From: a bacterium
Lineage (GTDB): Bacteria; Fidelibacterota; Marinisomatia; Marinisomatales; JAHJCW01
Length of the DNA stretch: 64,000 nucleotides
Reading direction: 5' to 3'
NCBI GenBank assembly: GCA_028282845.1
Contig: JANQGY010000013.1
Coordinates: 197,350 to 261,349, forward strand
The position numbers and the translations under genes were made by a program. Below are positions 3,110-62,545 of the stretch, one piece after another. A model generated the notes under the pieces. It made no database searches. It was not told the origin of the DNA and saw nothing but the letters and a program-made list of their open reading frames with translations. How positions within the stretch are numbered: position 1 is the first letter of the stretch; every line of letters begins with the position of its first letter.

Positions 3110-4546
3110 TTATTGAGGTTTATATACCATTTCTCCTTTAGTATTAATTACACCATATTTACCATTTATTTCAACAGTTGCCAAACCATTGCTATCAAAT
3201 GACCAAACATTATCAAATTGGGGAGTAATGATTATTTCACCTTTCGAATTAACAAAACCATATTTCCAGTTATTACGAATTTGAGCAAAAGAATTTTCAC
3301 CAGTAAAATTAGATATAAAATCAAATTGTGGTGTTACGACAAACTCTCCATCTGTATTTATGATACCATATCTACCATCAATTTTTACAGGGGCTAAGTT
3401 GTTTTTATAAAATATAGTTCCCCCATCAAATTTAGGAAATATAATAATTTTTCCTGTAGCATCAATAAAACCATATTTATCTCCAATCTGTACAGCAGCA
3501 AGTTCATTTTGATAAAAACCAAATGCCCCATCAAATTGTGGGGTAATGACTACCTCACCTTTTAAGTTGATATATCCCCACTTTTTATCAATTTCGATAG
3601 GAGCAAGATTGTTAGCAAAATCGAACATGTTATCAAAATGGGGATATGTTATCATTTCACCGGTTGATTTTATTATTCCCCATTTATTATCAATCTCTAC
3701 CTGTGCTAAACTATTATTATTAAAGGCTTTTATAAAATCAAACTGTGGATTAAATACAAAGTCACCATTTTTATTAATAAGACCCCATTTCCCACTTATT
3801 ACAACAATTGCTAAATCATTTTTATCAAAATTTGATAAAATGGCATAATCCTTTTTTACTCTTGGATTACCCCGACGTTGATTTTTAACCCATTCATCAC
3901 CTTTATCGGCATATGTTTGTATGCTTTCAGAAATATCTTCAATATAATAATCAAATAAGGATTCTACAATTTTTTTGCCTTCGTCATTTATATATCCCCA
4001 CTTATTATTTAACTTAGTTCTAGCTAGTCCATTTTCAGAAAATTTATATGCTTCATCAAATTTGAATTTAATGATAGTATTACCTTTAGAATTAATGTAA
4101 CCCCATTTGTCATTAATTTTAACAGCGGCTAATCCATTTTCAGAAAATCCCTGAGCATCATCAAATTTTCTTTCAATAACGAATTTACCTTTTGTGTTTA
4201 TATATCCCCATTTCCCATTAATTTTTGCTCTAGCCAATCCATTGTTTGTAAAACTAAATGCCTCTTCATATTGAGGTTGAATGATAAATTTCCCCTTTCT
4301 ATTAATATATCCCCACTTGTTGTCATATTTTACTGGATTTGTTCCATTTTCTGAAAAACCATAAGCATTTTCAAATTGAGGTTCAATAATAATTTTACCA
4401 TTTCTATCCATAAAACCATAATTACCATCCTTGCTAATTCTATATAAAAAATCTTTTTCGGTAATATTACTATTATTATTACAGCCAACGATTATTATAA
4501 ATAATAAAACAATATTTAAAACTTTTATATTAGTTAAATATTTCAT
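3110..4546 (-). CDS. WG-repeat (KWGYIN) lipoprotein with about 12 tandem 35-aa repeats
   Basis: N-terminal signal peptide with lipobox (IIIVGC). Repeated units of the form KWGYINxKGKxIIxPxFDxAxxFSxNGLAxVKxN. The gene is lower in GC than its neighbours. Confidence 0.85.
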   Translation of the reverse strand: MKYLTNIKVLNIVLLFIIIVGCNNNSNITEKDFLYRISKDGNYGFMDRNGKIIIEPQFENAYGFSENGTNPVKYDNKWGYINRKGKFIIQPQYEEAFSFTNNGLARAKINGKWGYINTKGKFVIERKFDDAQGFSENGLAAVKINDKWGYINSKGNTIIKFKFDEAYKFSENGLARTKLNNKWGYINDEGKKIVESLFDYYIEDISESIQTYADKGDEWVKNQRRGNPRVKKDYAILSNFDKNDLAIVVISGKWGLINKNGDFVFNPQFDFIKAFNNNSLAQVEIDNKWGIIKSTGEMITYPHFDNMFDFANNLAPIEIDKKWGYINLKGEVVITPQFDGAFGFYQNELAAVQIGDKYGFIDATGKIIIFPKFDGGTIFYKNNLAPVKIDGRYGIINTDGEFVVTPQFDFISNFTGENSFAQIRNNWKYGFVNSKGEIIITPQFDNVWSFDSNGLATVEINGKYGVINTKGEMVYKPQ

Positions 4547-37018: not shown

Positions 37019-37762
37019 TTAATTGGCAACTAACCATTGATATCCTTTCTCTTCAACCGCGCGACCCAACTCTTGCCCGCCGGATTTCACGATCTTTCCG
37101 TCTATAAGTACATGGACAACATCCGGTTTGACATAATTCAGCAGTCTTTGATAATGTGTAATTACCAGAAAAGATCGCTTGTCATCACGGTAGGAATTAA
37201 CGCCGTTGGCGATGGTTTTCATTGCGTCAATATCCAATCCGGAATCGGTTTCATCTAAGATAGCCAGTTCCGGTTCAAGGGTTAGCATTTGTAATATTTC
37301 GTTGCGCTTTTTTTCGCCGCCCGAAAATCCATCATTAACCGAACGCCTAAGGTACGCCTCATCCATGCCGACCAACTCTAATTTTTCTTTTATCAGTTTC
37401 ATAAAATCAATTGCGTCAATTTCGGGCTCGCCAAAGTATTTTCGTTTAGCGTTCAAAGCAGCTTTCAAAAAATAAGTATTGTTAACTCCCGATATCACCG
37501 ATGGATATTGAAATGACATAATGATTCCATTTAAGGCGCGTTCCTCGGCGGACATTTCCTCAAGGTTTTTGCCTTTATACATGATAGATCCTTTGGTAAT
37601 CTCATATATTTCATTACCGGAGAGTACATGCGCCAGGGTACTTTTCCCGGAACCATTCCGACCCATAATGGCATGTGTTTCACCGGGATTGATCTTGAGG
37701 TTGACGCCTTTCAATATTTGACTGTCTTCGACTGAAACGTGTAAATCTTTTATTTCTAACAT
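37019..37762 (-). CDS. sufC: Fe-S cluster assembly ATPase SufC
   Basis: Walker A GRNGSGKST, signature FSGGEKKRNEILQ and Walker B AILDETDSGLD. Confidence 0.95.
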   Translation of the reverse strand: MLEIKDLHVSVEDSQILKGVNLKINPGETHAIMGRNGSGKSTLAHVLSGNEIYEITKGSIMYKGKNLEEMSAEERALNGIIMSFQYPSVISGVNNTYFLKAALNAKRKYFGEPEIDAIDFMKLIKEKLELVGMDEAYLRRSVNDGFSGGEKKRNEILQMLTLEPELAILDETDSGLDIDAMKTIANGVNSYRDDKRSFLVITHYQRLLNYVKPDVVHVLIDGKIVKSGGQELGRAVEEKGYQWLVAN

Positions 37763-37803
37763 ATTATTATAATTTTAAGTTTTGAGTTATCAATTTTTAA
37801 TTG

Positions 37804-38784
37804 TTACCAATAACGAATAGTTAAATATTTTATTAATTCTTCATAGGTCTTTTTATTTATTCCATCTAAAAATTTCTCGGGTGATATAATTACATACTTT
37901 GATTGATTTTGCAAGTGCTCCCGCCAAGTTGTCTCCATATCTTTATTGCTGCATTTGTATTGTTTATTAAGTAGATCTAGATTTTCAGAAGGAATTATAT
38001 GAACATGTAAATAATCTGATGCTTTTAATCTTTCATTTTGTCTATTTTTAATTAACTGTTCAGTCCATAGCGTTTGTCTCATTAACTGATAAAATGGCTC
38101 AAAGTAATAACAATAATGATTTTCACTTTTTAATTGCTTTGAACCATTTATCAAATCAGTATATCTTCTCTGACGTTCTTTACCTTTGCATTTCTCAGGA
38201 TTGGCTTTGCAGCCTTCTTTTGCTTTGTTTAGGTTACCGTAATGTTCAGTATATTTCCATTCAATAGGGATTAACCACGTCTTGCCATCTTTGTGTACTG
38301 CATGAATTAATGCGTCTATCGAAGTACAATTGCTTCCTCTTCTTGATGTTTTTTCATTTAGATTATCAATATAACTCACTGCTTCAAATTGGATATATGC
38401 AGGATCAAAATCATCAGTAATTATAGGTAAAACATCTATAAAATCATTTGAAATATTATTTGCTAAGGATAAAGTTGCATCTTTACCATGTCTTAACGGG
38501 AAAAGATGATTAACACACGCAATTTGTGATGACAAAATGTGTCCGGTAGGTTTTTTACCTCCCCACCAAGAAATCCCATTTTCAGCAAAATAATTAATAG
38601 CATCATCTTTAATGGGGTGGAAAAGGTTTTTATTAAAATCAGTTAATACAAAATCTCTTTCTGTTTTTTTATATATTGCTCCTCCACGACCATCATAAAA
38701 TACAGGATTCTTATCCTTAATTAAATTTAATCCCTTTTTACGCTGTTCTTCTTGATAATGTGATGCCATATATTTTTTCTTCAC
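37804..38784 (-). CDS. Hypothetical PD-(D/E)XK nuclease-like protein inserted between sufB and sufC
   Basis: 326-aa ORF with candidate catalytic D157..E175-W-K177 (SIDALIHAVHKDGKTWLIPIEWKYTE). Visibly lower GC than the flanking suf genes. No adjacent methyltransferase. Confidence 0.5.
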   Translation of the reverse strand: MKKKYMASHYQEEQRKKGLNLIKDKNPVFYDGRGGAIYKKTERDFVLTDFNKNLFHPIKDDAINYFAENGISWWGGKKPTGHILSSQIACVNHLFPLRHGKDATLSLANNISNDFIDVLPIITDDFDPAYIQFEAVSYIDNLNEKTSRRGSNCTSIDALIHAVHKDGKTWLIPIEWKYTEHYGNLNKAKEGCKANPEKCKGKERQRRYTDLINGSKQLKSENHYCYYFEPFYQLMRQTLWTEQLIKNRQNERLKASDYLHVHIIPSENLDLLNKQYKCSNKDMETTWREHLQNQSKYVIISPEKFLDGINKKTYEELIKYLTIRYW

Positions 38785-38816
38785 TTAAAATTCAACATTT
38801 AACACTCAAAATTATT

Positions 38817-40295
38817 CTACCCAACTGACCCTTCCAAACTGATCTCCATTAGTTTGTGGGCTTCCACAGCAAACTCCATTGGCAGCTCGGCGAATACTTC
38901 CTTGCAGAATCCGTTCACGATCATTGAAACCGCATCCTCGGTAGATATTCCGCGTTGGTTACAATAGAATAATTGATCGTCGCCGATATTCGAGGTGGTG
39001 GCTTCATGTTCCATCTGAGCTGTTGGATTACGCACATCAATATATGGAAAGGTATGCGCACCGCACTGATCACCGATCAGGATGGAATCGCATTGTGAAA
39101 AATTGCGCACATTCTCAGCATTTTTCATAACTTTAACACCACCGCGATAAGTGTTTTGTGATTTGCCTGCCGAAATCCCTTTCGATATAATGGTGCTCTT
39201 GGTATTATTGCCGATATGGATCATTTTCGTACCGGTGTCGGCTTGCTGATAATTATTGGTCATGGCTACGGAATAGAATTCTCCGACCGAATTATTACCT
39301 TTTAATATTACACTTGGATATTTCCAGGTAATTGCCGAACCGGTTTCAACCTGTGTCCATGATATCTTTGAATTATTCCCTTCACATAAACCACGTTTGG
39401 TAACGAAGTTATAAATGCCGCCCTTACCGTCTTTATCCCCGGGATACCAATTTTGTACGGTTGAATATTTTACGGTTGCATCCTTGTGGGCAATTATCTC
39501 AACGACTGCGGCGTGCAATTGATTTTCATCGCGCATCGGAGCGGTACAACCCTCCAAATAGCTGACATAACCACCTTCGTCGGCAACAATTAATGTTCTC
39601 TCAAATTGTCCGGTTTGCGCAGCATTTATTCTAAAATAGGTCGAAAGCTCCATCGGACAGCGGACACCTTTGGGAACATAGACAAATGAACCATCGCTGA
39701 ATACAGCGGAATTTAAGGCCGCATAAAAATTATCGGTGGGCGGCACCGACATCCCCAAATATTTTTTGACCAATTCAGGATGTTTTTGTACAGCTTCCGA
39801 AAACGGCAAAAAGATCACGCCGTGTTTGGCAAGCTCCTCCTTGAAAGTGGTTGCTACGGAAACGCTATCAAACACGGCATCAACTGCCACATTTGATAGC
39901 ATTTTTTGCTCTTCTAATGGAATACCTAATTTGTTGTAGGTCTCTAATAATTCCGGATCAACCTCATCCAAACTTTTTAATTTTTTCTTTTCTTTGGGGG
40001 CGGCATAATAACTGATCGCTTGAAAATCAACCGGTGGATATTTGATATTTGCCCAAGTTGGTTCGGTCATTTTTAGCCAATTACGATAGGCTTTTAGGCG
40101 CCATTCCAACAGCCAGTCCGGCTCATTTTTCTTGGTTGATATTAATCTGATCACATCTTCATTCAGTCCGGGCGGTAGTTTTTCCTGCTCGATGTCGGTT
40201 GTAAAACCGTACTTATAGTCCTGACTGATGGCGTCATCAAGAATTTTATCTTCACGTTCCTTGAACGATGCTGTTTTCGGTGGAATTTTTGACAT
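38817..40295 (-). CDS. sufB: Fe-S cluster assembly scaffold SufB
   Basis: Highly conserved blocks ([42 protein letters not shown]). Confidence 0.95.
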
Positions 40296-41015: not shown

Positions 41016-41023
41016 GTTAATAC

Positions 41024-41036
41024 GACTAAATTAGTC
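41024..41036. promoter_or_regulatory. GACTAAATTAGTC palindrome matching the core of the IscR type-1 box (GACTRwwwYAGTC)
   Basis: Perfect 13-bp palindrome 9 nt upstream of the Rrf2 start codon. Confidence 0.5.
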
Positions 41037-41130
41037 CTATTAAATTACGAAGTAATATTTTAATTAAAAATATTATTTTGTTTTTACCCCCTCTTCAATC
41101 TACGCTAAAGCTACGATTGATAAATTAATT

Positions 41131-41461
41131 CTCCCCCTAAAATAGGGGGAGACGTTGAGTGAAACGAAACGGAGGGGGTATTAACAAAGTATGTCATTCT
41201 GAAAACCCGATTCATTGGGGGTGAATTCCCACTATCATTGCGATCCCGACTTGTCGGGGGACGAAGAATCTATAGTCTTTCACCCGTCTATCCTTCGGAC
41301 ATCTCCCCTCCAAAGGCTGACAAGCCCTCGAGGGTAGACAAAGGAGGGGTGAATAGTATTGTCATTTCCAACTTGATTGGGAATCTATACTTAAATTGGA
41401 TTCCCGCTTTCGCGGGAATGACAAATAATAAGTGTAGAGACGTAGCATGCTACGTCTCTAC
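41131..41461. repeat. Cluster of GC-rich palindromic hairpin elements (REP/BIME-like)
   Basis: ctcccccta-aaa-tagggggag (41131..41151), cccgac-tt-gtcggg, ccctcgaggg, attcccgc-tttc-gcgggaat (41400..41419), and the perfect 28-bp palindrome gtagagacgtagcatgctacgtctctac (41434..41461). Confidence 0.7.
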
Positions 41462-41476
41462 TACTAAGTATAAAAA

Positions 41477-41523
41477 TTATAATCCCGTCTCAGCAACTAC
41501 TTCCTTTACATGTTCAGCAGGTG
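41477..41523 (-). pseudogene. Orphan diverged copy of the last ~15 codons plus stop of mdh
   Basis: It encodes PAEHVKEVVAETGL* versus TADHVKEVVAETGL* at the real mdh end. 37/44 nt are identical by hand alignment, and 6 of the 7 differences are synonymous third-position changes. Confidence 0.6.
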
Positions 41524-41556
41524 AAAAAACCCTCAAGGTTTTATAAACCTTGAGGG
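41524..41556 (-). terminator. Rho-independent terminator of mdh
   Basis: On the minus strand, an 11-bp stem ccctcaaggtt/aaccttgaggg with a 5-nt loop is followed by tttttt. It lies 38 nt after the mdh stop. Confidence 0.85.
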
Positions 41557-41593
41557 CTTGATAAAGGGTTTGGTAAAACGTAATAGGCAAATA

Positions 41594-60182: not shown

Positions 60183-60914
60183 TTAGGAATCACTTTTAAG
60201 ACGATCAATTTCGGCTTTTATTTCTTCAATAATTTCCTCATTGACAATTACTTTTTTATCTCCTTCCCGAGTAGAAAATATAACAAATACTTTACCACCG
60301 TATTTTTCCTCAAAATCGATGAAACTTTTACTCATTCTTTCGGTTATTTTATAATTGGCAAAATTCGCATTAGCTGTAATAGGTTTGATTTGAATACCAA
60401 ATGCTTTGTCACCAACTTTTCCAATGTAATCAATATCTCCTGCGTGGTCAAGTTCAGGGTCACTTTCTACAAACTCAACATTAGAAAATAATTTGACAAG
60501 TATGTCACTGATTACGGATTTTTCGAGGAGAAAACCATCATATGTTCTAACAATTGTCAACTCATATATGTAGTCTTTACAATCTTGTAGTGTTAAATCT
60601 TTGAAAGCTGCCGTCCATTCAGGGATTACTATTTCTGTTATCTTTGAATATAGTCTTTCGCCTAGTTCATCCAAAGTCTTTTTTGTTACTTTTATAGGTT
60701 CTTTCGTTTTAGTATATGCTTCTTCAAAATAATATTGTTCCCATTCTTCTATAACTTTGGGTTGACATTTTCTTATTAATGCCATTACTTCACCAACTTT
60801 GGGTGGTCTAGTTAGCTGATAATTACTTGCAGTATAGTTAAGGACTCTTTCTTTCTTCCCAAATGGTTTAGCATATTTTTTTATATCTTTTTTTGTCATT
60901 TTATATAGATTCAA
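60183..60914 (-). CDS. Putative type II restriction endonuclease (PD-(D/E)XK-like)
   Basis: Candidate motif GDIDY-x12-IQIKP (D160/D162..Q175-x-K177). Last gene of the operon with the DNA methyltransferase. Low GC. Confidence 0.45.
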   Translation of the reverse strand: MNLYKMTKKDIKKYAKPFGKKERVLNYTASNYQLTRPPKVGEVMALIRKCQPKVIEEWEQYYFEEAYTKTKEPIKVTKKTLDELGERLYSKITEIVIPEWTAAFKDLTLQDCKDYIYELTIVRTYDGFLLEKSVISDILVKLFSNVEFVESDPELDHAGDIDYIGKVGDKAFGIQIKPITANANFANYKITERMSKSFIDFEEKYGGKVFVIFSTREGDKKVIVNEEIIEEIKAEIDRLKSDS

Positions 60915-61257
60915 TTCTTAAATCTGGTAATGTAGTTGGATTTTGTTGATTTGGAAGATTATTCCAGCCGTTGCGCATACTTTGCCTCCTGTTTAATATA
61001 CTTTCAGCTCTACTTTGTAAAGAATTAAGATTTTCCTCAATTTCAGTTAAATTTCTTATTATATAGAAACCTCTATTACAACTGCCTATAAGATTACCTC
61101 TATTAATTGCGTTACGAATTACATCTCTCATTTCAACTTCAACGCCGCGATCAGAAATTCCAAAAAATACTGCTAATTCGGTTGCAGTTATTGAATTTTC
61201 GCGACCTATGTGACCATTATTATTCAGATACAATATCAATTCATGAATTTCTGGCAT
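60901..61257 (-). CDS. Small putative winged-helix DNA-binding protein between the methyltransferase and nuclease genes
   Basis: 118 aa. ITATELAVFFGISDRGVEVEMRDVIRNAI resembles an HTH. It overlaps both neighbours (17 and 14 nt). Confidence 0.4.
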   Translation of the reverse strand: MPEIHELILYLNNNGHIGRENSITATELAVFFGISDRGVEVEMRDVIRNAINRGNLIGSCNRGFYIIRNLTEIEENLNSLQSRAESILNRRQSMRNGWNNLPNQQNPTTLPDLRIESI

Positions 61258-62545
61258 AATTATCCTCCAGATTAATAAATTTATTTAAATATTTAAAATC
61301 AAATTCTTTGTCAACATTTACTAATCCATTTTTTATTAAATGGGCATTGACAAAAGTTTTATTTTTTAAATAAACGTACCCTAGAATATTGTTATTTGAG
61401 TCAAATTTTATTTCATCATGCTTTAGAAAAATTCTCTGATTTTTAAATTTTTGTTTTAGAAATTCTATCGCTTGACCATTTTTGGTTGAATCTGTCTTTA
61501 CTCCTATCAGGCGTATTTTCAAACCATTTTCTAAGGCAATAAGCTCCGGTGAAATTATTTCCTTTACTTTGTGGTATTCTTCTCTGTGTTGTGAATTTTT
61601 ATCAATCTTTGATCCATATTGTAATTTTTTTGGGTCAACCTTTTTATTAAAAGTGTGATTATCTTTAAAAATATAGGGTAGTTTTTGAATCCTATCTTTG
61701 AAGTTTGTATCTTTTGATTTTTGTTCAATGAATTTGTATTCGGAGGGGAATATTTCGTTTTGATTTATGTCTAACTTATCTTTGATAAAAGGAATAAAAT
61801 CTTTATTAATTTCATATCCCCAAGAATTTCTTTCTAAATTTTTAGCTGCTAAGGAAGTTGTTCCACTACCCAAAAATGGATCTAAAATTGTATCACCAAC
61901 GAATGAAAACATTTTAATTAATCTTTTTGGTAATTCCTCAGGGAACATTGCAATATGTCCATCCTGCTTTGCTCCATTAAAATTCCAATGTCCTGAGAAA
62001 TATTTCTTCCATTCTTCAGTTGTCAATTTTGATTGTTCCTTTAATATTGGATCAGGTTTAATCGGAGTACCAAGTTTTTTTAAAATTAAAATGAATTCGT
62101 AGTCGATTGATACAATACCATTTTTTGGGAATGGAAAACTTCCCATAATGCTGGCTCCACCAGTTGTATTCATTGTAGTTTGCTTTTGCCAAATAATTGC
62201 ACCCATATAATCAAAGCCAATAGATTCACAGAATTTGATTATTTCTGTTCTTATGGGAATTACTTTATATCTTCCATAATAAACTGCGCGGGCAAATTGG
62301 TCACCGATATTGACACATAACCTACTTCCATTTTTTAGCACTCTATGACATTCACTCCATACAAGATTTAAGTTATTGATATAATCCTCATAACTATCAT
62401 CAAAGCCTATTTGATTTTCAGCTTCATAATCTTTTAATTGCCAATAAGGAGGTGAAGTAATAATTAAATCAATTGTCCGATCTTTTAGCTCAGACATATT
62501 TCGGCAATCGCCTGTTATTATTGTATGGATTGTTTTAATGTTCAA
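61241..62545 (-). CDS. Beta-class N4/N6 DNA methyltransferase with a C-terminal degenerate SNase-like (OB-fold) domain
   Basis: Motif IV DLIITSPPY precedes motif I DPFLGSGTT. The C-terminus IRLIGVKTDS...ILGYVYL...NAHLIKNGLVNV resembles thermonuclease but lacks the DAPE catalytic residues. Confidence 0.88.
   Translation of the reverse strand: MNIKTIHTIITGDCRNMSELKDRTIDLIITSPPYWQLKDYEAENQIGFDDSYEDYINNLNLVWSECHRVLKNGSRLCVNIGDQFARAVYYGRYKVIPIRTEIIKFCESIGFDYMGAIIWQKQTTMNTTGGASIMGSFPFPKNGIVSIDYEFILILKKLGTPIKPDPILKEQSKLTTEEWKKYFSGHWNFNGAKQDGHIAMFPEELPKRLIKMFSFVGDTILDPFLGSGTTSLAAKNLERNSWGYEINKDFIPFIKDKLDINQNEIFPSEYKFIEQKSKDTNFKDRIQKLPYIFKDNHTFNKKVDPKKLQYGSKIDKNSQHREEYHKVKEIISPELIALENGLKIRLIGVKTDSTKNGQAIEFLKQKFKNQRIFLKHDEIKFDSNNNILGYVYLKNKTFVNAHLIKNGLVNVDKEFDFKYLNKFINLEDNYARNS

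Follow-up and report, generated by a model that had tools for sequence, protein, structure and literature searches.

What is a nuclease-like gene doing inside an operon for the assembly of iron-sulphur (Fe-S) clusters? The question is raised by a stretch of 64,000 nucleotides (nt) of contig JANQGY010000013.1 from a bacterium of the Fidelibacterota (here called the window), in which sufB and sufC are separated by an extra open reading frame (ORF) that runs in their direction. The original prediction had proposed a foreign, restriction-endonuclease-like protein of the PD-(D/E)XK type at this position and had considered a homing-type or selfish insertion, a solitary defence nuclease and a domesticated factor as its possible nature. 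We are highly confident that this is an acquired gene of the PD-(D/E)XK family. Our overall reading is that of a stand-alone, methyltransferase-independent defence-type nuclease that spreads as a single-gene unit and is carried in the suf operon; we hold this to be the probable explanation, with appreciable room left for others.

The suf cluster lies on the minus strand in the order Rrf2 regulator, FeS_assembly_P, sufB, extra ORF, sufC, sufD, nifU-like gene, FeS_assembly_P and sufS. Read from its upstream GTG, the extra ORF has 981 nt and encodes 326 amino acids (aa), with spacers of 32 nt on the sufB side and 41 nt on the sufC side, exactly as first described, and the two peptides quoted at the time (GHILSSQIACVNHLFPL and SIDALI...LIPIEWKYTE) are both present in its translation. 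Because every homologue begins at the position of an internal ATG (38769, MASHY...) and not at the upstream GTG (38784), the true gene most likely starts 15 nt further downstream, encodes 321 aa and is preceded by a spacer of 47 nt; residues D157, E175 and K177 of the 326-aa ORF are D152, E170 and K172 of the 321-aa protein, the numbering used below. The ORF had also been described as AT-richer than its flanks, and base composition agrees with this. Its overall GC content is 0.30 versus 0.41-0.43 for the flanks (0.28-0.33 in 400-nt windows within the ORF, 0.41-0.45 in sufB and sufC), and its GC content at third codon positions (GC3) is 0.20, as compared with 0.372±0.025 (minimum 0.31) across 16 long genes of the window, or some 7 standard deviations lower. 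An index similar to the codon adaptation index had no discriminating power for this gene because the host itself favours AT-ending codons. The junction between sufB and the nuclease gene is 100% identical in a second public assembly (L001), which is possibly not independent of the source of the window.

The protein matches the Pfam family PF22558 (REase-ARP, "Restriction Endonuclease associating with ARP", of the PD-(D/E)XK clan) with 173.8 bits (E=7.5e-51; gathering cut-off 27 bits) over model positions 10-270 of 270, a full-length match that bears out the family proposed originally, and more weakly PF20796 (PDDEXK_13, E=4.6e-15). A large protein search returned 1681 homologues at E<=1e-3, a few of them named "PGN_0703 family putative restriction endonuclease" by NCBI, and an exhaustive search of representatives gave 1061 REase-ARP clusters at the same threshold; scans against NCBIfam and PHROGs, as well as sequence and profile searches of the PDB, found no matches. 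Across 52 aligned homologues the mean column identity is 59% and 75 columns are invariant, among them E129, D152, E170 and K172. In an AlphaFold2 model (predicted local distance difference test score (pLDDT) 92.4, predicted template modelling score (pTM) 0.91), these four residues lie on three successive strands (126-130, 151-159 and 164-171), in the canonical PD-(D/E)XK order. The proposed core D157-x17-E175-x-K177 thus stands, being both invariant and placed on consecutive strands, and a distant 288-aa paralogue aligns with the 321-aa nuclease at the same D and ExK. The protein is predicted to be a Mg2+-dependent DNA endonuclease. About 25 of the top 150 family representatives are fusions of 560-710 aa (P0252, P0260, P0271, P0276, P0278 and P0288, for example), in which REase-ARP follows an N-terminal domain of about 300 aa. 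Searches of Pfam and the PDB found no relative of this domain, and hhalign did not link it to REase-ARP itself; it has an invariant D...ELK motif of its own (DIW...YELK), which suggests a second nuclease-like domain.

Could the gene nonetheless belong to the Suf machinery for Fe-S assembly, as an integral part or a domesticated one? All that speaks for this is the placement and direction of the gene and a likely co-transcription with its two neighbours. It took the large protein search to reach two close relatives, L188 and L189. Their SufC is 84% and 83% identical to that of the window, with which they share the gene order citrate synthase (gltA), malate dehydrogenase (mdh), Rrf2, sufB, sufC, sufD, nifU, sufS and dCMP deaminase; their sufB-sufC spacers measure 29 and 23 nt, with no nuclease gene between. 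Because both show the same gene order without the nuclease, the comparison places the insertion, which added about 1.03 kb, after the split from these relatives, in agreement with the foreign insertion first proposed. Genome and metagenome contig scans with SufB and SufC gave no close relative (at most 82% and 70% identity), SufB of the window being 82% identical to that of Marinimicrobia metagenome-assembled genomes. Searches with SufB or SufC yielded 80 loci from genomes and 80 from metagenomes (about 150 suf loci, spread over phyla), in which the usual gap between sufB and sufC is 3-250 nt and a homologue of the nuclease is absent. Universal presence at the suf site together with suf-like codon usage, named originally as the mark of an integral component, is the reverse of what is seen, with none of the roughly 150 other loci occupied and a GC3 about 7 standard deviations under that of the genome's genes. 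Furthermore, the examined homologues all lie outside suf operons. A role as a Suf component is thus effectively refuted, and we give it next to no chance. The AT-rich spacers give only approximate boundaries of the insertion; AATAAT, which may lie at both ends, is a candidate target duplication.

Inserts of more than 300 nt separate sufB from sufC in 11 of the 150 retrieved loci, which belong to distant phyla, as against none of 128 between sufC and sufD (Fisher p=0.0011). The cargo differs from case to case and is unrelated. L099 has an N6_N4 methyltransferase and a weak DpnII-like gene, L073 an AAA_15/AAA_21 ATPase and a 162-aa partner, and L058 Uma2, an ORF judged DinB-like by eye and not by a scan, and one more small ORF; 23S_rRNA_IVP (L068), DUF433 (L012) and a hexapeptide transferase (L085) are found elsewhere. 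Because 11 of 150 loci carry inserts of unrelated cargo there, the sufB|sufC junction is a recurrent landing place for accessory genes. One protein, P0122, was considered as an extended SufC and rejected, as it is an unrelated, internally duplicated protein.

What kind of accessory gene this might be is best judged from its homologues. The nearest, 69% identical, sits at a different place in its genome, and the top 120, at 58-69% identity, come from Bacteroidota, Spirochaetota, Kapaibacteria, Marinimicrobia and others. We read 11 distinct homologue contexts; none is a suf operon, and no two are at the same site. Several of them are rich in defence genes. The homologue directly follows McrB-McrC in L166 (Thiospirochaeta), precedes an island of Type I restriction-modification (R-M), SIR2 and DUF87 genes with an integrase and a resolvase in L169, comes after Fic and YhcG-like genes in L182, and adjoins AbiEii pairs and a resolvase in L185. 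In L002 a Xer/IntI-like tyrosine recombinase lies immediately upstream. The neighbours at the P0043 locus carry no Pfam domain. The homologous genes keep a GC content of 0.30-0.35 regardless of that of the host. The family had no match in GenBank phages or IMG/VR viral contigs, and PLSDB plasmids gave one match to the nuclease, at 31%. In marine contigs (L171-L180, with L172/L173 representing Ga0211531_1000752), the 321-aa REase-ARP gene lies in a unit of 4,248 bp that is repeated in tandem at least three times and that adjoins DUF559, WYL and DNA ligase genes. A divergent REase-ARP paralogue of 288 aa is part of the unit, as are three ORFs of 211, 243 and 72 aa without significant Pfam match; the repeat may be a true tandem array or an effect of assembly.

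The gene is solitary throughout. No dedicated partner methyltransferase was found in the 11 contexts, the ARP partner implied by the family name is absent from these and from the window locus, and there is no conserved small partner gene, the small ORFs downstream of the homologues being mutually unrelated. This bears on whether the protein is an orphan Type II restriction enzyme with its protecting methyltransferase encoded elsewhere in the genome, as its restriction-endonuclease-like family and a low-GC N6_N4 methyltransferase gene 21 kb away might suggest. That methyltransferase, however, is already paired with an adjacent MjaI-family endonuclease, and the single methyltransferase adjacent to a homologue among the 11 contexts (in L169) is a Type I hsdM with its own hsdR. 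Moreover, a lone Type II enzyme could not cross phyla as a single-gene unit without killing its recipients, and the mean column identity of 59% is far above the usual conservation of Type II enzymes. We therefore regard an orphan Type II enzyme as quite improbable. A Type II R-M system proper was likewise rejected, the immediate neighbours of the nuclease gene being sufB and sufC, with no adjacent cognate methyltransferase.

How the gene may travel is indicated by homologues in unrelated surroundings. L167 and L185 have different neighbourhoods, and their similarity (89.5% identity) is confined to a segment that starts 48 nt upstream of the ATG and ends 19 nt past the stop codon; this segment opens with GTTATGGCAA and closes with TTGCCATAAC, a perfect 10-bp inverted repeat. 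The ratio of non-synonymous to synonymous substitutions (dN/dS) between the two genes is 0.069. This low ratio, and the identity of 20 of 20 repeat bases against a 39% difference at synonymous sites, show that protein and unit ends alike are under constraint. L002 and L003, 100% identical downstream, part company exactly at the equivalent left repeat, GTTATAGCC. In L002, L167 and L182, the right repeat opens a conserved, imperfect 3' palindrome of about 135 nt (putatively attC-like); in L167 the left-end sequence recurs in direct orientation after this palindrome, immediately ahead of the next small ORF. With 235 bits, the recombinase in L002 passes the cut-off for "tyrosine recombinase/integron integrase" (NF040815); for IntI it stays below (197.6 < 265 bits). 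When arrays of GTTATRGY/RCYATAAC boxes were looked for by regular expression, no boxes turned up beyond the two that enclose each gene. Folding the 3' trailers as single-stranded DNA gave no significant structure (z -0.1 to -2.0), and a consensus fold of three sequences gave a single 6-bp stem. The window copy keeps vestiges of such ends. Its two spacers form an imperfect inverted repeat, matching at 22 of 29 positions and placed as the homologue ends are; GTTAAATG in the upstream spacer is similar to the left end of the homologous units, GTTAT(R)GC..AATG (GTTA..AATG being what remains), and TTGATAAC in the downstream spacer to their right end, TTGCCATAAC. The original statement that neither a methyltransferase nor a repeat flanks the gene thus holds for the methyltransferase and needs amending as to the repeat.

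A compact unit bounded by inverted repeats, with ends more conserved than synonymous sites and without a partner gene, would also suit a selfish mobile nuclease, one that spreads its own gene through homing-like cleavage of empty sites or through transposase action on the inverted-repeat ends, with the essential suf flanks guarding it against deletion. Its place, wedged between two essential and highly conserved genes, is like that of free-standing phage homing genes. We nevertheless find this doubtful. The 11 contexts are 11 different sites, which gives no homing-site specificity, and the roughly 150 other suf loci are all unoccupied. Neither dispersed multiple copies nor a clear target-site duplication is in evidence. 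The low dN/dS (0.07) and the level of identity kept across phyla (about 60-69%) suggest a function that benefits the host, and the separate tyrosine recombinase beside the unit in L002 could do the moving. The homing-type insertion entertained at the outset is not sustained, every homologue examined being at a different locus. Two specific element types were also tried and set aside: a homing endonuclease gene, for which relatives do show an empty site but the other suf loci are unoccupied and the homologues are at unrelated sites, and an insertion sequence, for which inverted ends are present but a clear target duplication, a transposase family match and dispersed multiple copies are not.

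Cassette-like mobility of the REase-ARP units is a lead. In its fullest form, the idea would be that REase-ARP genes are minimal single-gene cassettes that cross phyla (a leader of about 50 nt, the ORF, an attC-like 3' palindrome and inverted GTTAT.../...ATAAC sites), are moved by Xer/IntI-like tyrosine recombinases and plant solitary nucleases in permissive spacers of essential operons, with sufB|sufC as a recurrent landing pad, also for unrelated cargo (R-M, ATPase, Uma2 or toxin-antitoxin genes), and the window copy as a fixed cassette with eroded ends. We offer this tentatively, as a speculative scheme that is clearly more apt to fail than to hold.

In the explanation that we prefer, the nuclease gene arrived by horizontal transfer, in a compact unit of about 1.05 kb that landed in the short AT-rich sufB-sufC spacer of a Marinimicrobia-like lineage. 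Its product would act without a cognate methyltransferase as a stand-alone defence enzyme, needing no self-protection by methylation. Because the gene spreads as a single-gene unit, the nuclease should be harmless to a naive host that lacks such methylation, and it would thus be either Type IV-like, cutting modified or otherwise foreign DNA, or otherwise restrained. As a passenger of the operon the gene would probably owe its transcription to read-through from the suf promoter, and it would have no role in Fe-S assembly. Such read-through, and with it co-transcription with sufB and sufC, is plausible because neither spacer has a terminator-like site. At the 3' end of the insert, a near-consensus sigma-70-type sequence, TTGATA-16-TATAAT (11 of 12 matches), faces sufC and ends 4 nt before its ATG; as a candidate promoter it could relieve polarity on sufCD, and the downstream spacer region as a whole has no excess of sigma-70-like matches. 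A solitary defence nuclease or a selfish mobile gene, as the original prediction also allowed, fits the homologue contexts best, a role that we infer from those contexts.

A number of results weigh against this explanation. First of all, Foldseek found no significant solved relative for the model in the PDB library, where the best hit was EcoO109I (E=0.5) and the top hits as a group were EcoO109I, MspI, HamA and MspJI, all at E>=0.5 and with template modelling scores of about 0.2; nor did it find a significant match in the viral library BFVD, which gave weak nuclease hits, the best at E=0.038. With no significant solved or viral relative, it is the Pfam profile together with the motif that carries the fold assignment; the structure search proposed originally yielded nucleases as its top hits, none of them significant, and it is the profile that supports the PD-(D/E)XK family. 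Second, PADLOC has no model for the nuclease, and we found no experiment on any family member in the literature on REase-ARP, PGN_0703 and PDDEXK_13, the sole mention being of PGN_0703 adjoining a btuB riboswitch. Third, Pfam, NCBIfam and PADLOC recognised no modified-base reader domain in the protein; modification dependence has no direct support from domains and is something that we purely infer. Fourth, in L167, L170 and L181 the homologue lies among plain housekeeping genes, without defence neighbours. Finally, the inverted repeat of the window is of marginal significance (28 of 2000 spacer shuffles reach its score, p≈0.014), and the long 3' palindrome of the other units is absent there.

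The housekeeping surroundings just mentioned, together with the very high sequence conservation under strong purifying selection and the fusion of about 25 of the top 150 cluster representatives to a second domain of some 300 aa, would also fit an accessory nuclease outside defence. Such an enzyme might serve in DNA repair or recombination or act on particular DNA structures; it might also be an effector dependent on activation by an unlinked partner, which the words "associating with ARP" in the Pfam name hint at. Its patchy, strain-level distribution, foreign composition and absence from close relatives argue against this, as do its recurrent neighbours (McrBC, R-M and Abi or toxin-antitoxin genes), and we consider it unlikely.

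The window contains other features of note, listed with those of the locus in Table 1. A second low-GC island (GC 0.27-0.32), 21 kb from the nuclease gene, is a self-contained Type II R-M pair, in which an N6_N4 DNA methyltransferase with a C-terminal SNase domain, the only methyltransferase of the window, accompanies an MjaI-family restriction endonuclease; the GC3 of the pair (0.21-0.22) is like that of the suf-embedded nuclease. Between mdh and Rrf2 lie 578 nt, versus 205-323 nt in L189 and L188, with GC-rich hairpins throughout; these include a perfect 28-bp palindrome, GTCATTCCCGCGAAAGCGGGAATC and TCTCCCCCTATTTTAGGGGGAGA, and look like small palindromic repeat elements. The lowest GC content in the window (0.28; GC3 0.17) belongs to the gene for a WG-repeat protein of 478 aa (PF14903, 10 repeats), which is likely another acquired gene. 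Neither an Rfam nor a tRNA scan of the entire window gave a hit.

Table 1. Coordinates of the nuclease locus, of other features in the window and of comparable features in retrieved loci
Feature	Coordinates or loci	Strand	Remarks
REase-ARP / PGN_0703-family PD-(D/E)XK nuclease gene, intact ORF	37804..38769	-	321 aa, most likely start; PF22558, PF20796, homologue starts, AlphaFold2 model
Extra ORF, maximal extent	37804..38784	-	From GTG
sufB, left flank of insertion	38817..40295	-	82% identical to Marinimicrobia SufB
sufC, right flank of insertion	37019..37762	-	83-84% identical to SufC of L188 and L189
Upstream spacer/leader, sufB stop to nuclease ATG	38770..38816	-	Holds left inverted-repeat arm 38787-38815; GTTAAATG motif 38803-38796
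Downstream spacer, nuclease stop to sufC ATG	37763..37803	-	Holds right inverted-repeat arm 37769-37797
Candidate sigma-70-type promoter	37793-37766	-	Faces sufC
Low-GC island, Type II R-M pair	60183-62497	-	
N6_N4 DNA methyltransferase gene	61241-62497	-	With C-terminal SNase domain
MjaI-family restriction endonuclease gene	60183-60899	-	
mdh-Rrf2 intergenic region	41016-41593		Hairpins throughout
Perfect 28-bp palindrome	41434-41461		Within mdh-Rrf2 region
WG-repeat protein gene	3110-4546	-	
Loci with >300-nt sufB-sufC gap	L012, L021, L058, L061, L068, L073, L079, L085, L093, L099, L106		Distant phyla
3' imperfect palindrome (putatively attC-like)	L002 6984-7125; L167 7981-8136; L182 5978-6120		Downstream of nuclease gene
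Direct copy of left-end sequence	L167 8116-8136		After palindrome

For annotation and metabolic reconstruction, the odd gene in this essential operon is to be treated as foreign cargo and not as a new Suf factor. As a horizontally acquired accessory or defence gene it is a fairly ordinary case, and current views are not overturned by it. It does draw attention to REase-ARP/PGN_0703 as a family of large size (over 1000 clusters at 50% identity) and strong conservation that is uncharacterised, that behaves like a methyltransferase-free defence nuclease, and whose members travel as discrete, repeat-bounded units of about 1 kb. The aspects most worth attention are the cassette-like mobility and the sufB|sufC hot spot. 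That this junction, and not sufC|sufD, repeatedly takes accessory or defence genes in distant phyla suggests that some junctions in essential operons are safe harbours for mobile cargo.

How, then, does the system compare with those already described? The homologous units are like integron cassettes (an ORF with attC) and the Xer-dependent dif modules of Acinetobacter (PMC6449649, PMC7399989) in that a single promoter-poor ORF lies within inverted ...GTTAT/ATAAC... ends, in that the breakpoints between homologue contexts fall exactly at the unit ends, and in the palindrome of about 135 nt at the 3' end of three units, the left-end copy after it in L167 and the recombinase upstream in L002. Unlike integron cassettes, they form no arrays, their boxes match GTTRRRY/RYYYAAC only partly, the L002 recombinase stays below the IntI cut-off and the folds are weak; the window copy, having neither the 3' palindrome nor a neighbouring recombinase, lacks these cassette features. 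The free-standing homing genes Seg and Mob of phage T4 offer a second parallel, as AT-rich single nuclease ORFs in short spacers between conserved co-oriented genes, which is also the arrangement in the window. The present gene, on the other hand, is in a bacterial chromosome, belongs to a family that is absent from phage and viral collections and is not a known homing family, and occupies a different site in each genome. With the Type IV PD-(D/E)XK enzymes Mrr, McrC and MspJI the nuclease shares its stand-alone, methyltransferase-free state and the occurrence of its family in defence islands, once directly after McrBC, and MspJI is among the weak Foldseek hits. It differs from them in having no detectable homology or significant structural match to any of the three, no recognised SRA, EVE, winged-helix or other reader domain and no GTPase partner. 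The closest comparison is with the PF22558 REase-ARP family itself, from which nothing sets the window protein apart, as it falls in the same length class of about 320 aa and has the same E...D...ExK residues; the gene in the suf operon thus adds a member to a known, biochemically uncharacterised family of nucleases.

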